The notes: a model not told the origin generated them from the sequence alone. A DNA stretch of 64,000 nt from Eledone cirrhosa (GCA_964016885.1 OZ024743.1:353152001-353216000), one strand, 5' to 3'; counted from the stretch's first letter, positions 450 through 61,540 are shown. Numbers and translations: made by a program.

Positions 450-700
450 ATACGGGGGAACAAATAATAGTTAAATGCAGTCCACTTAGGTATAGTCCAG
501 TTATGGTATTCCAGGTAGTGGATGATATTAACGCTTGGCTTGGTTTGACTCAACAAGTAACGTTTGGTTTGACTCAACGAGTAACGTGAAAATAAGCGAA
601 TAGCGATCTCTAGACCTACCAGTTCAGAGAAACAATTGTCAGCTATGAGATTAAAAACCTTTTTTGTATAGCAAACCATGTCAACCTTCTTTCCTGATTT
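450..700. mobile_element. Short tail-out pair of PLE 3' ends between (TA)n arrays
   Basis: 450-557 matches 39650-39757; about 590-700 matches 41545-41649 (GAAACAATTGTC half-HHR); same family as the 39.6-41.6 kb PLE. Confidence 0.75.
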
Positions 701-934
701 ATATATATATATATATATATATATATATATATATATATATATATAAATAAATAAATATTGCAGGGTGTTATATATATATATATATATATATATATATATA
801 TATATATATATATATATATATATATGTATATATATATATATATATATATATATATATATATATATATATATATATATATATATATATATATATATATATA
901 TAAATATTGCAGGGTGTTATATATATATATATAT

Positions 935-2440
935 AAATCTGTATTCCAATGTTACTAAGTAGTCGTATTGGATGGAGTCAACCGACGTCGGAGATTGCTC
1001 AACGTATAATAAAGTGTGTTTTAAAATCCGGAGAAAATATGAAGAAGAAGTTTATGAAACGGAAATGGGGTATAAAGAATGTATTAGGTAACAATTGTTT
1101 CTATAGTGTATGGGTTACCTATACCTCACTATTTGTATTCGCTAAGGCTAACTCGGACCTCACAAACGAGGAAATTAATATTATACTTGAAGCTAGACGC
1201 ACAGTAGTTCATTTTGAAAATAGTTATTGGGTCCGCAGAGATAGACCCTCGGAATTTGACATTACGATGGGTTCTAATGATTCGGCGGAGGTTACGGATC
1301 TGGTTGGGATCTATATAGCCCACAGACTCCAGAGCGAATTTACTGACCTCCACGGTGGAATCTACCGCGATGATGCACTTCTATTAGTCAAGAATATGAA
1401 CAAACAAAACCTAGAAAGGCGACGTAAAAACATTAGGAAACTTTTCTTAGAACTAGGGCTTAATATTACCTTCGAACACAATCTTAAGGTGGTCAACTTC
1501 TTGGATGTCACCTTCAACCTTAATAACGGTAATATAAAGCCATTTCACAAACTTAATGAAAATCTCAAGTACGTTAATGTAAAATCGAACCATCCCCATT
1601 CCATTATTAAAATGCGCTCCGTAACAACCCTCGCCGATAAAGCCTGGCAGCTTCGGAGGAACAATCAAACATTCTCCCTTGATTGGCAAATTATTTAAGT
1701 TGGGCCTGCATATAAGCAAAATCATGGATTCTGTAAATTATGCAATATGGAGATATACTGCATTTTAACGTCGGAAAACAAACTCTTGAACAGCAAAATT
1801 GAACGTTCACTTTACTGTAACCATCGTTTGAAAACGACTTTTTCTTTTTTAAATGCATGTAATGTTACCTTTTTACACCACCGTTTGCAAATTTTTGTTT
1901 TATATGTTTATACACACGATATGGCTTTCTATAATAATAGTACTAAACACTGTTTTTTGGACCCCTTTAGAAATAACCTGCTACTATAATAGCCCCAATA
2001 ACTTGTCTGTAATTCTGTACTACTTTGACCCCTTTAACTAAATTTTGTCCAAACAACACCACTAGAAGAATTTACTTCCCCCGCCAACCCTAACACGCCT
2101 CATTAAGCTAACTGCTGCCAAAACATTTTTTCCTTACAATCTCTACTACTCTGACAGTCTTAAATCCTAAGACTCCCTCCCCCTTACTCGCTTCCCTCTT
2201 CCTCTTCCCTTCCTACCTCCTTCTTTCTCTTATATCTAGTGTATAAAATATTTTCATATCATTCTACCACTAAGGTCTGACGACATGGTGTGTTTTCTTA
2301 CAGTGTACCTACGATTTATGATAATATTTTTATATTATACAAATAGCGAGGTATAGGTAACCCATACACTATAGAAACAATTGTTACCTAATAAATTCTT
2401 TATACCCGCATTTCCGTTTCATAAACTTCTTCTTTATATA
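935..2440 (+). mobile_element. 5'-truncated, internally deleted Penelope-like element (Naiad-like RT) with inverted terminal arm
   Basis: ORF 949-1698 contains FDITMGSNDSAEVTDLVG, GIYRDDALL, VNFLDVTFNL, SNHP, then jumps to the GIY-YIG C-terminus (TTLADKAWQL..CKLCNMEIY); about 1040-1140 is the reverse complement of about 2335-2435; (TA)n on both sides. Confidence 0.9.
2273..2389 (+). ncRNA. Hammerhead ribozyme with very long stem II loop
   Basis: AGGT-CTGACGA-C-ATGGTGTG...TACACTAT-A-GAAA-CAATTG-TT-ACCT; stem I AGGT/ACCT; palindromic stem III ACAATTGT. Confidence 0.7.
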
Positions 2441-2482
2441 TATATATATATATATATATATATATATATATATATATATATA

Positions 2483-2900
2483 TAACACCCTGCAATAGAT
2501 TGCTTATAAACACTGTTGTCGTTCGTATTCGCGAAATTAAGTGAATAATTAACAGCTTTGTGAGTATATAAATGCAATACTTAATCTGACATATGAAGCC
2601 CTACCACTAATGATGACATACCAGGTAGAATAGATTGTAATATAGTGAGTAAAATGTTTGATGCCAACGAATTTGCTCGAATTCCGTTCTGCAGCACCAA
2701 ACATCCAATGTCTTCCACGCCACTTTCCTCTGTGATATTACCGATACATATATTTTGACTCCACTGTAATCAGAATCTTGTGCCATACAATCCTCCGAAT
2801 TACTTTGGATGTGCTGCTCGCTCATATCTCTACCTCAAATTTGGAGCCAAACTTAGTTTAAGGGTAAACTGTCGCCCAAATACACAGGAAATGAATTACG
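2483..2900 (-). pseudogene. Merlin (ISXO2/IS1595-like) DDE transposase relic
   Basis: Minus-strand translation across stops and frameshifts gives VESKYMYR*YHRGKWRGRHWMFGAAERNS, ILPG..IIS and HKAVNYSLNF...KQSI, matching Merlin motifs ES..RKYHRG..W.FG..ER and H..VNHS.NF. Confidence 0.6.
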
Positions 2901-58939: not shown

Positions 58940-59942
58940 AGAATCTGTACTATAGTCTCCAATAAAAACACCTGCTACTTACGGCTACAAGAACTAAAGG
59001 ACACTCATAGGCAGGGACTACCCTGAATCACTAATTGACAATGGAATCCAAGGTGCCCTAAAACTCAGTACCCAGGACCTTAGACACCCTAAAGTAAATC
59101 AACCGAAACTAAAAGCTCTTCCATACATCTCCACACACAACCCCCTCAACAATGAGGCCTTTGACACCATCCTCCAGAACATCCCTGTGTTGAAAAAGGA
59201 CCATAGAATGAACCAAATCCTACGAACACACGATATCATAAAGAGCAAAAGACAATCTAAGTCAATGAAAAACATCCTAACACATGCCAAAGTACTGCCA
59301 ACCACAACAACGAAACCCACAGTAAAAAAAATGCGATAGACCCAACTGTGGCATTTGCATCAACCTAATAGAGGGTTCGGAATTCTATTTCAAAGAAGGA
59401 CAACGTTTTATAGTAAAACACAATTTCACATGCGCATCAGAAAATCTAATATATGTATTAACTTGCTCAGGTTGTCGAGAACAATACATAGGCCAGACCA
59501 AAAACAGCCTCCGCCAACGCATGACTGTCCATAGATCCCAAATTAAAATACGGGAATAGAGGAAAATACCACTGAGTGAACACATTGATACCTGTGCCGC
59601 CCAAAATCATCCCAACTTCAGAATCTTTCCCCTCTACAAATTTAAAGATAGTGCCACCCACACCCAGCGCATCAGCAAGCAATCTTACTTTATTAACAAA
59701 TACGGACCCCGTCTAAACACTTCTCCCTAAGACGAACCCACAACATACACACGTCAACATACATACCTACATCAGCATACATCTCTACCCACATATAAAC
59801 ACAATGACATACGTAAACACACATGTTCTATGGTGCAACACAAATATACACAAATTTGCATACCTTTTGATGTCTATAGATATAAACGTGCCGACTCACA
59901 CACATACATAAACGCACACATGCATTGCACACTGATGGGCAC

Positions 59943-60200
59943 ATACATATTTGTGCACAGGTATTCCAATACGGCAAGGCCTAATGAATTCCCCTTGCAG
60001 TACGTACAATCTGGACACACTCCAGATACATATTTGTGCACAGGTATACAATTTCTGGACACACTCCAGATACATGTGTACAATTTGTGCACAGGTATAC
60101 AATTTCTGGGCACACTCCAGATACATATTTGTGCACAGGTATTCCAATACGGCAAGGCCTAATGGATTCCCCTTGCAGTACGTACAATCTGGACACACTC
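59943..60200 (+). repeat. Tandem repeat in PLE 3' UTR
   Basis: Units start atacatatttgtgcacaggta and end ctggacacactccag; long-short-short-long arrangement. Confidence 0.8.
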
Positions 60201-61164
60201 ACACACACCTTGGTATTATGCCAATACTATATATCATTTCACACCTTTTATTATTAAGGTTTTTGATGTTCTATTGAGAGAATCGATTTTACTGAAAATA
60301 TCGAATAATGTACACCATTTTACCAGTAATAAATACTGGTCCACCCACACACACACACACACACACACACACACACACACACACACACACATACACACGC
60401 GTACATTAACATACAAAGACACACACACACACACACACACACACACACACACACACACACACACACACTTCTCCGTATAAGACAAGAGCTGAAAAAATAT
60501 ATTTTAACATGTTAAAATATCCCCCACACACTTACAGACACATTCCTACTGACCATCCCTCTACCACGAATTACTCTGCTACACACACACACACACACAC
60601 ACACACACTTGTCTTAATAGGCATTTGAACTATCAACAGGCTGCGGTTCGCACACACATCCCTGCTGCCCATTATCACAACAACGAACCTCTTTACTACT
60701 ACTACACACACACACACACATATTTGTTGTGAAAGACTTATTTCTCACTCAGCCGACACAAACCTACATTTGGCGCAAAATCAATTTTTTACATTCACAT
60801 GACCTCTACAGACCAATCAAAATTGTTTTGACCACAAGAATTTTTGCAACACGAATTGGCGCAAAACTTATTTTAATACCGCTGGAGCCACTTTTTTAAC
60901 ATAAAAACAGGTAGAATTCCCAAAACTAATCAGATCAGAGCAAACATCACGGACGCTCTATCTCAAAATTATTTTTGAAAAGCATTAGAAATGCGCAACC
61001 GGTAAAAACCAAAACTCAATACTAACCAATACTATTACTAATTCTCACTTATTCCTAATTAAACTATTTTTCACTCTGAACAATTTGTCAGCATTTTCTA
61101 TTCCGTTTACCAATATATATATATATATATATATATATATATATATATATATATATATATATAT

Positions 61165-61540
61165 AACAGAGTTTTGTAGCTTTCTTGAAGCCTTGTTAAA
61201 TAGGAAACACAAATTTAAATAATTTTGAAAACCAAAACAATGCGTTAGTAAGAACATTAAATCACCAAGATAACAAAAGAATCTTACCTTAGCAAATTTA
61301 ACGATCCCATTATCTAGGGTTACACCCTATGAGAGACTTGATCGGATTGACTTGTTTGTTTGGAGAACAGATTTAATTTAAATCTCATAGGGTCACTCCC
61401 TTGATAATGGGGTTTTAAACCCGAAATATTTGGGATGGTTAAATTTGCTAATGTAAGATTCTTTTCTTATCTTGGCGATTTAATGTTCTTACTAACGCAT
61501 TGTTTTGGGTTTCAAAATTATTTAAATTTGTGTTTCATAT
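61165..61540. mobile_element. Inverted-arm PLE remnant with HHR at 61397-61435
   Basis: 61203-61309 is the reverse complement of 61431-61536; TCCC-TTGATAA-TG-GGGTT(tta)AACCC-GAAA-TAT-TT-GGGA. Confidence 0.7.

Follow-up and report, generated by a model that had tools for sequence, protein, structure and literature searches.

How does a Penelope-like element (PLE), one of the telomerase-related elements, come to lie in DNA as two 3′ ends that point outward and are joined head-to-head? The question was raised by a 64,000-nucleotide stretch of Eledone cirrhosa DNA (GCA_964016885.1 OZ024743.1:353152001-353216000), which was analysed as a whole and is called the window below. A reading of the sequence alone (the sequence-only reading) had proposed such inserts between (TA)n arrays as the dominant mode of PLE integration. 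Head-to-head is given as the most frequent PLE arrangement, and attributed to self-priming, in PMC3846280 (Arkhipova et al., 2013); all papers named here and below are cited from the portions available. An inverted 5′-truncated copy at the 5′ end and a tail that is often one-sided are described in PMC8557442 (Craig et al., 2021), as is a (TA)n target for nearly all Hydra families, an octopus one among them; such an inverted copy is also noted there for Penelope-13_HM. The layout itself is therefore not new. The origin of tandem and inverted PLE ends is named in the same paper as an open problem, and in vitro work (PMC11167929; Frangieh et al., 2024), in its available portion, stops short of it. 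On balance we favour the reading that Hydra- and Neptune-type PLEs insert through coupled twin priming from a pair of start sites built into one RNA.

The window is AT-rich animal DNA (35% GC), in which 109 (TA)n runs were merged into 48 arrays separated by 47 inter-array intervals. All 14 inserts that had been named as tail-out, head-to-head units between (TA)n runs were present, a few bases from where they had been placed, and six more were found (7435-7523, 7570-8432, 14050-18138, 18534-22479, 27398-27734 and 28933-31495). The 20 inserts, of which one is tentative, one probable and one complex, measure 89-4089 bp, in agreement with the continuous size range proposed earlier, and together span 26.9 kb, or 42% of the window. 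By hand count they occupy 28 of the 47 intervals, and another 16 intervals are not PLE or are without resolved content. Three PLE pieces lie in the window without an inverted arm (55700-61112, 9377-9482 and 38989-39289).

The inverted 3′-end arms of the sequence-only reading were found in 13 of its 14 inserts and are about 90-100% alike. In the fourteenth, 453-699, there is no inverted repeat, and the arms come from the 39653 family as two pieces that do not overlap. Orientation was set by an open reading frame (ORF), a hammerhead motif or a family copy for 12 of the 14, and all were tail-out; a head-out reading of 936-2434 was dropped, its first 203 nt being the inverted arm. The direction of 13559 and 61166 has a weaker basis, namely the similarity of their ends to the ORF-bearing arm at 18534 (z 5.2-5.8; best reverse-orientation control 4.7). 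PLE origin was upheld by Hydra- and Neptune-type motifs and by ORF homology. The description of the longer copies as coding for reverse transcriptase (RT) needs correction, since no intact RT-endonuclease ORF was found within the window, and the term ribozyme-bearing holds for half of the named inserts, a complete hammerhead core having been found by motif scans in 7 of 14.

The evidence for paired priming begins with the insert ends, which fall at two fixed places in each family: site 1, and site 2 about 30-200 nt downstream, with tails of 31-196 nt. Of the 15 same-family inserts, 13 combine site 1 at one end with site 2 at the other. If the ends chose independently, asymmetric inserts would make up at most half, and against this most favourable case p=0.004 (13 of 16, p=0.011, with the TAA-flanked palindrome at 33013 counted). 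The earlier supposition that the two ends prime independently of one another is contradicted by this pairing. For 9 of the 13 asymmetric inserts a second copy or reads showed the tail to be family sequence, and in 14050 and 55700 the tail sequence runs on into the ORF. Inserts of low divergence are already asymmetric (39653, 0 substitutions in 408; 41719, 2 in 697; 14050, 0 in 91). The start sites match the target over a short stretch, mostly 3-7 nt of TAT or ATAT: of 23 ends, 15 overlap (TA)n by at least 3 nt, or 9-10 when the 16 family-sites are counted, whereas random points do so in 11% of cases. A site-2 end motif common to Hydra 23009 and the 13559 group (z 4.7) equalled the control and is not claimed.

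In 453, 936, 8742, 23009 and 41719 the tail-less arm extends further upstream than the tailed arm. These five inserts are therefore not the product of one folded cDNA, unless a deletion followed, and they sustain the earlier claim that both target ends are primed. Inverted arms that consist of the tail only were found at 14050-14140 (91/91 identical) and at a locus in another host (L005). The possibility that arms end at the hammerhead cleavage site was rejected because most run past that site, often stopping in stem II.

In Hydra elements a copy of a GCUC-loop-GAGCACU hairpin stands about 6-12 nt downstream of each start site. The hairpin was followed outside the window with a profile made from 30 Hydra proteins, which gave 78 metagenome loci from other hosts; most of these contigs start and stop inside the pseudo-long terminal repeat (pLTR) and are uninformative on insertion structure. 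Of 53 loci, 44 have the motif (G/A)CTC-loop-(T/C)GAGCACT no more than 160 nt past the hammerhead, usually at a distance of 60-90 nt; among background windows the figure was 81 of 1560. Of 33 loci searched with a strict pattern, 21 had two copies of the two-part motif in the 180 nt before the ORF, 55-79 nt apart, 9 had a single copy and 3 had none. The predicted fold pairs CTC with GAG in 62 of 66 cases; the outer stem pair was G-C in 56, A-U in 3 and A-C in 4. The published consensus of Hydra-1_Ajap also contains the motif twice.

Insertion ends respect these copies. Hammerhead-then-TA rows numbered 17, two of them from neighbouring elements, and gave 15 usable 3′ TA ends. None is past both copies: six precede copy 1 and nine precede copy 2, the first copy being degenerate in one of the nine. 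Where the junction could be compared with a read-through copy, it lay about 6-11 nt upstream of the stem. A matrix trained solely on the metagenome loci matched 8 of 12 Hydra-type start sites of the window (p<0.01); six of its seven top window matches lie 7-12 nt past a start site, and the two sites of the 14050 element are among those so marked. There, on the plus strand, hairpin motif 1 (14266-14288, ACTC-loop-GAGTGCT) begins 7 nt past site 1 at 14259, and hairpin motif 2 (14359-14379, GCTC-loop-GAGCGCT) begins 9 nt past site 2 at 14350. No description of the duplicated hairpin or of PLE twin priming was found in the literature searched, in which coverage of older PLE-structure reviews is thin.

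Two further observations concern these signals. In the Neptune-type element one strong stem-loop (56040-56150, z -6.35) takes in the start codon together with the two start sites, and a similar 12-nt word (ATATCATA..CTC) follows each start site, a possible second paired signal. In three full-length Hydra copies of other hosts (L055 989, L045 3019 and L009 966) the 5′ end meets (TA)n a short way upstream of hairpin 1 or 2, as though the completed cDNA had annealed to the other target end at a natural AU motif.

Public reads (three contig sets and one raw restriction-site-associated DNA (RAD) run, 4 of 19 runs) were compared with 42416-44968. (TA)n follows 44891 and 44965/44967 in all four sets (in set X1, 62, 71 and 136 contigs, among the matches listed). 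Depth over the last 150 bp of the 41719 family was 2.7 million in X1, against 14-148 thousand elsewhere, and was also far deeper in X4; depth in these two sets does not give copy number, nor do read counts in the RAD run give locus counts. At least 16 distinct head-to-head joints involve the 3′ region, and among the matches listed the tail-side piece begins at 44885-44913, where site 1 and hairpin 1 lie, in 8 of 16. Four joints lead to 44885, with a shorter side of 61, 51-61, 55 and 39 nt; sides of 61 and 55 nt equal the distance to 44891, which we take to mean that a site-1 arm meets a tail-only arm head-to-head. A pile-up of read ends at 44838 was rejected as a stop site, being a read-length effect of one deep RAD start. 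The junctions vary: several read joints hold short inserted letters, one of them a 13-nt tandem, and duplications are present at the junctions of 453-699 and at 19709. Templated insertions are a mark of end joining by polymerase theta, and the insertions and duplications at the joints resemble them.

Under the proposed mechanism, the RT-endonuclease, probably as two subunits with one on each hairpin, would nick both (TA)n strands. Each target 3′ end would then pair with the AU motif before one hairpin of the same RNA and prime a cDNA. The cDNA from site 2 would often stall at hairpin 1/site 1, giving non-overlapping arms, and read-through would give an inverted repeat. The truncated cDNA ends would be united by end-joining repair, through microhomology or natural stem-loops and sometimes after a short fold-back, and mostly short cDNAs would leave many mini palindromes. 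The two ends may at times be served by RNAs from different families. A broader reading, possible and held with some doubt, is that the duplicated hairpin of Hydra elements programs two priming sites, one per strand. Twin priming on one RNA would then be the built-in route to an inverted pLTR with a one-sided tail, the free ends could be joined across families to give Hydra-Neptune hybrids in one event, and (TA)n tracts would fill with short retro-derived hairpins.

Several observations weigh against coupled priming. Symmetry was seen in two same-family inserts (11936 and 27007) and in the TAA-flanked 33013-33306. The shorter arm is the tailed one in 6 inserts and the tail-less one in 2, which does not exclude asymmetric deletion; such deletion after insertion could yield short or non-overlapping arms. 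For the perfect palindromes 13559 and 28421, as for the two fold-backs (19709; about 30110), self-priming is an equally good fit. Four of the 12 Hydra-type start sites and all four Neptune-type ones are without a significant motif match, the A-U outer pairs come from two or three related window families, and a role of the hairpin as a protein-binding signal is a candidate one. In the reads, 44885 is also the edge at which a sister subfamily diverges, with 133 contigs that have loose ends there, so that the pile-up may in part reflect an alignment edge; a single ancestral copy could lie behind all four joints to 44885, the geometry of the joints was deduced from the lengths of their sides and not from individual reads, and the window's own junction at 44182/44183 has no spanning read among the matches listed. 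The dominance of the layout holds in the window, but an inverted arm was found in only 3 of 17 long Hydra copies of other hosts (L005, tail only; L024; L033), a set picked for long protein matches and so biased to long copies; in 6 of the 17 the head lies directly on (TA)n. L024 2512-4812 and L033 792-3084 hold the same truncated element and inverted junction (97.9% alike) in different flanks, so the junction was either inherited or the copies were collapsed in assembly.

In the self-priming proposal, one cDNA or antisense template folds at a stem-loop and copies itself, and the endonuclease then trims one end, leaving a tail (PMC3846280; PMC8557442 credits the tail to endonuclease resolution). 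Junctions of the window that sit on natural inverted repeats (28642-28654 and 19692-19717) and the perfect hairpin 13599-13873 suit this proposal, which also predicts a one-sided tail and can account for 14050-18138, where an upstream tandem copy is present. We consider it unlikely, since it needs the tail-less arm to lie inside the tailed arm and, without later deletion, fails in the five inserts with a longer-reaching tail-less arm. The read joints in which a site-1 arm of 51-61 nt meets a tail arm from 44885, and the target microhomology at both ends, each with its own hairpin, also speak against it.

Priming of the two (TA)n break ends separately, by separate RNAs whose cDNAs are then joined, is quite unlikely in view of the asymmetry and of tail arms that halt at site 1, which suggests a shared RNA. 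It gains from the wide variation in arm length, from overlapping arms, which are most simply derived from two templates, and from inserts made of two families, of which two are well oriented and one is probable. In 18534-22479 the endonuclease end of family P1 (18534-19708, minus) is joined to Neptune-type P2 (19831-22479, plus; hammerhead 22238) through a 122-bp fold-back (19709-19830) at a natural 9-bp inverted repeat. In 28933-31495 a Hydra endonuclease end (minus, to about 30117) is followed by an 8-bp fold-back and a Neptune-type GIY-YIG end (plus, from about 30126); a hammerhead lies at 31313 and a SINE-like repeat at 30709-30897. The probable case, 27398-27734, pairs an inverted copy of the 11359-11596 repeat with the site-2 end of the 55700 family, the direction of its left arm being inferred from a GAAAC motif only. 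No TA remnant was found at the family junction in 18534-22479 or 28933-31495. The chances are about even that two-family inserts arose as a single event with two RNAs or by later deletion between neighbours.

Later rearrangement is the main rival for these two-family inserts. As a general account, in which full palindromes or neighbouring single inserts are formed first and deletions then shorten one arm or fuse families, it is very unlikely. Long palindromes are prone to deletion, TA arrays in the window show local duplications (746-768, 903-917 and units in 22480-23008), and the inserts are densely packed. Against this stand the asymmetry of the barely diverged 39653, 41719 and 14050 and the clean junctions of the two ORF-oriented family pairs.

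It is highly improbable that the inserts go back to a handful of head-to-head units, each formed a single time and then spread in fixed form in the manner of miniature inverted-repeat transposable elements (MITEs). The L024/L033 pair, alike in its junction and different in its flanks, would fit such spread, and collapse in short-read assembly could explain it as well; the four 44885 joints could share one ancestral copy. The fixed length and recurring junction of a MITE were not seen in the window, where copies of the 41719 family and its relatives measure 89, 109, 217 and 3250 bp, each with its own junction, and one family shows at least 16 distinct joints; the earlier claim of a retro-derived origin thus stands. 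That the class is an artefact of assembly or library has next to no chance, for although palindromes next to microsatellites assemble poorly and window junctions were without a spanning read among the matches listed, the arms carry substitutions and a family-specific tail, and the same two ends and head-to-head joints recur in raw reads and contigs from separate studies.

The Hydra assignment used motifs, homology to P0069 and P0005, and comparison by eye with the published supplement. Seven Hydra-type coding pieces were placed (936, 14050, 23009, 29705-30117, 39653, 41719 and 62419); they are 34-44% identical to P0069, which by eye resembles Hydra-1_Ajap in comparable stretches, and one Hydra protein of the window is, by eye, near Hydra-1_Obim of Octopus bimaculoides. 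A single ORF with RT plus a C-terminal GIY-YIG endonuclease, as in a short element, is represented by a broken ORF of about 2.2 kb (14421-16609) that aligns to residues 10-704 of P0005. The DKT motif reads KSDKTNN in the 14050 element and FSDKTKH in the 23009 element, and RWK is present in degenerate form only (RLG*RAF). The CxCX5C linker reads CNCRNKSNCP, CSCRVKSECP, CNCPDRSICP and CNCHLPDRCP, Hydra-type pieces are without CCHH, and CxxC and CxH lie near the C-terminus (CTLC...CPH, CNLC...CKH). Pfam searches missed the Hydra RT pieces.

Three coding pieces (55700, 19831 and 30126) are, by their motifs, Neptune-type, putatively distinct from Nematis. They have a CX2-5CxxC linker (CDRPNCGIC, CTNRKCIIC, CNDSRCGTC), CCHH in GIY-YIG, and DKG and DKS. 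One piece (19095, family P1), with an atypical linker, was left unplaced. Naiad, in which the endonuclease is N-terminal to RT, was rejected for 18534-22479, where the endonuclease is on one strand and RT on the other, each from a different family.

A hammerhead near the 3′ end, together with the (TA)n target, was found by motif scans as in Hydra elements, and its cleavage is a prediction; no canonical core was found by these scans for the 41719 family. Single-strand folds of the hammerhead regions were no better than shuffles, and an Rfam search of the window returned no hammerhead, only microsatellite-driven miRNA matches. Hammerhead-like motifs at 2277, 6302, 12083, 23176, 39981 and 41489 have a very long stem II (50-100 nt), inside which many short arms stop, and often a CCGA core in place of CUGA; any ribozyme activity would be putative. 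Short hammerhead motifs also occur in TA- or CA-flanked intervals without resolved arms (288-315, 5790-5820, 13219-13255, 27979-28040, 32240-32270 and 39417-39440), and probably mark more PLE ends.

Among the coding inserts, 39653-41650 (minus) consists of a long Hydra minus arm (39653-41240) with a 168-nt tail and a short plus arm (41241-41649) that ends at site 1. In 41719-44968 (Hydra, minus) the minus arm (41719-44182; RT thumb and endonuclease) reaches site 1 and the plus arm (44183-44968) has an 80-nt tail, with site 1 at 44888/44891, a hairpin motif at 44897-44923 and site 2 at 44965-44968. A Hydra left arm at 62419-64000 (minus) has its site-1 end on (TA)n, a hammerhead at 62519 and its right end beyond the window. 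On the plus strand, the Hydra-type 936-2434 has an inverted left arm (936-1138) made of a 106-nt tail and 97 nt, and a right arm (1139-2434) with internally deleted RT/endonuclease and a hammerhead motif at 2277. The 14050-18138 insert (plus) is a decayed full-length Hydra element with two direct pLTRs and hammerheads at 14159 and 18037; its inverted left arm, the 91-nt tail alone, halts at site 1. In 23009-26892 (plus) a Hydra element is truncated near the start of RT, and the inverted left arm (23009-23667) carries a 78-nt tail and a hairpin motif (23078-23055, minus). The exception is 55700-61112 (plus), a decayed full-length Neptune-type element with direct pLTRs, whose head lies on (TA)n without an inverted arm; its sites 1 and 2, at about 56069 and about 56107, lie in the stem-loop spanning the start codon.

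The shorter inserts are non-coding ends in various combinations. In 453-699 the left piece (453-557) is a site-2 end (minus) and the right piece (578-699) a site-1 end (plus) of the 39653 family, with a 24-bp duplication at the junction (540-587). The left arm of the non-coding 6090-7017 stops at site 1, and its right arm is 196 nt longer, with a tail that is single-copy in the window; a 68-nt insertion (6207-6274) is confined to one arm, and 47 nt of it are identical to 32302-32348. In 7083-7422 a 79-nt site-1 arm is paired with a right arm that has a partial tandem, a hammerhead core (7294), a hairpin motif (7360-7381) and a 71-nt tail, of which further copies lie at 9425-9482 and 54516-54565. 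The smallest probable tail-out insert, 7435-7523, is a tentative one and a relative of the 41719 family; 7570-8432 is complex, with a 13559-family end and permuted, inverted, hammerhead-bearing pieces of another family. Two mini inserts follow: 8512-8728, from a sister subfamily of 41719, with a tailed left arm and a right arm at site 1, and 8742-9139, from the 14050/62419 Hydra family, with hammerheads at 8838 (minus) and 8947 (plus) and, on its right side, a 96-nt tail with a hairpin motif (9055-9077).

In 11936-13004 both outer ends lie at one site, the left arm is an inverted tandem and three hammerheads are present. Near-perfect inversion over 275 bp was found in 13559-13873, which has a 40-nt left tail and a direction set by end similarity to 18534. 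The 109-bp palindrome 27007-27115 (41719 family) ends at site 1 on either side and contains no more than the 3′ half of a hammerhead-like fold; 28421-28837, of the Neptune-type 55700 family, is joined at a 13-nt natural inverted repeat and has a 39-nt left tail; and 61166-61536, with a 31-nt left tail and a direction again set by end similarity, has only about 8 nt of TA in its right flank.

Other repeats were recorded beside these inserts. At 22754-22857, within a TA array, two identical 46-nt inverted arms flank a central (TA)9, an arrangement that, were the arms 3′ ends, would be opposite to the usual one. The Hydra-like palindrome 33013-33306 (CCGACGA...GAAAC) has ends that are alike, flanks of TAA/ATT runs instead of (TA)n and an adjacent SINE-like repeat. 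Tiny pieces at 746-768 and 903-917 carry a ATTGCAGGGTGT end before (TA)n, with the reverse complement at 2485-2497, and are either 14-23-bp inserts or array duplications. The SINE-like repeat (190-200 bp, about 10 copies, 80-94% alike, flanked by ATAAT words) was found at 3034-3234, 30709-30897, 32831-33020, 35638-35988, 36551-36745, 37654-38163 (a 2.5-unit tandem at 37654), 46447-46639 and 61920-62100. The intervals 47779-49708 and 51534-54033 hold a decayed LINE with AP-endonuclease and RT and a second non-LTR-type end (52799-53596, minus) in repeated units with (ATGT)n borders.

A conserved, duplicated cis element at a fixed short distance from insertion ends can be tested directly by moving or removing one hairpin and, if the reading is true, the pair would also define a minimal RNA for insertion by Hydra RT. 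For annotation, such short palindromes can be very abundant, and pipelines that seek terminal inverted repeats would file them as MITEs or unknown repeats. They resemble MITEs in those terminal inverted repeats and differ in their variable length and in the tail on one arm.

In L1 twin priming, both target strands prime on one RNA, the internal primer blocks the 3′ cDNA and the junction shows microhomology; the internal site is variable and the arms do not overlap. In the window both sites are fixed, and the arms often overlap into inverted repeats. Canonical PLEs (PMC8557442 Fig. 2; PMC3846280) share with the window the head-to-head layout, the tail at one end, partial tandems and palindromes at junctions, whereas arms in the window can be non-overlapping, most copies are non-coding mini inserts, and tails measure 31-196 nt against 30-40. 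With the Hydra clade (Hydra-1_Obim, Hydra-1_Ajap; PMC8557442) the elements have in common a C-terminal GIY-YIG without CCHH, DKT, CxCX5C, a hammerhead and (TA)n; several window hammerheads differ in their 50-100-nt stem II and CCGA core, and the fixed pair of start sites, the duplicated hairpin and two-family inserts are not described in the available portion of that account. The 55700, 19831 and 30126 pieces share a CX4CxxC linker and a CCHH endonuclease with Neptune-type PLEs. Animal retrozymes have been proposed as non-coding PLE ends (bioRxiv 2026.07.22.740005, available portion), and so are the mini inserts here; non-LTR retrozymes have tandem units and complete type I hammerheads, whereas the mini inserts are inverted, mostly single units, with a whole core in 7 of 14. 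The closest biochemical parallel is Poseidon of Anolis carolinensis (PMC11167929), whose protein in vitro nicks and extends both strands, as is proposed here, at an AT-rich target, with two internal RT start sites on the RNA that delimit the tail, a dispensable hammerhead cleavage and a predicted dimer. Its start site is not homologous to the target, which counts against our reading, whereas the window sites have a 3-7-nt overlap with (TA)n and come in pairs, one for each end; the available portion of that study offers no model for the inverted arm. Set beside these systems, the layout, the one-sided tail and the (TA)n targeting are already published, and the paired start signal and coupled priming appear to be new.

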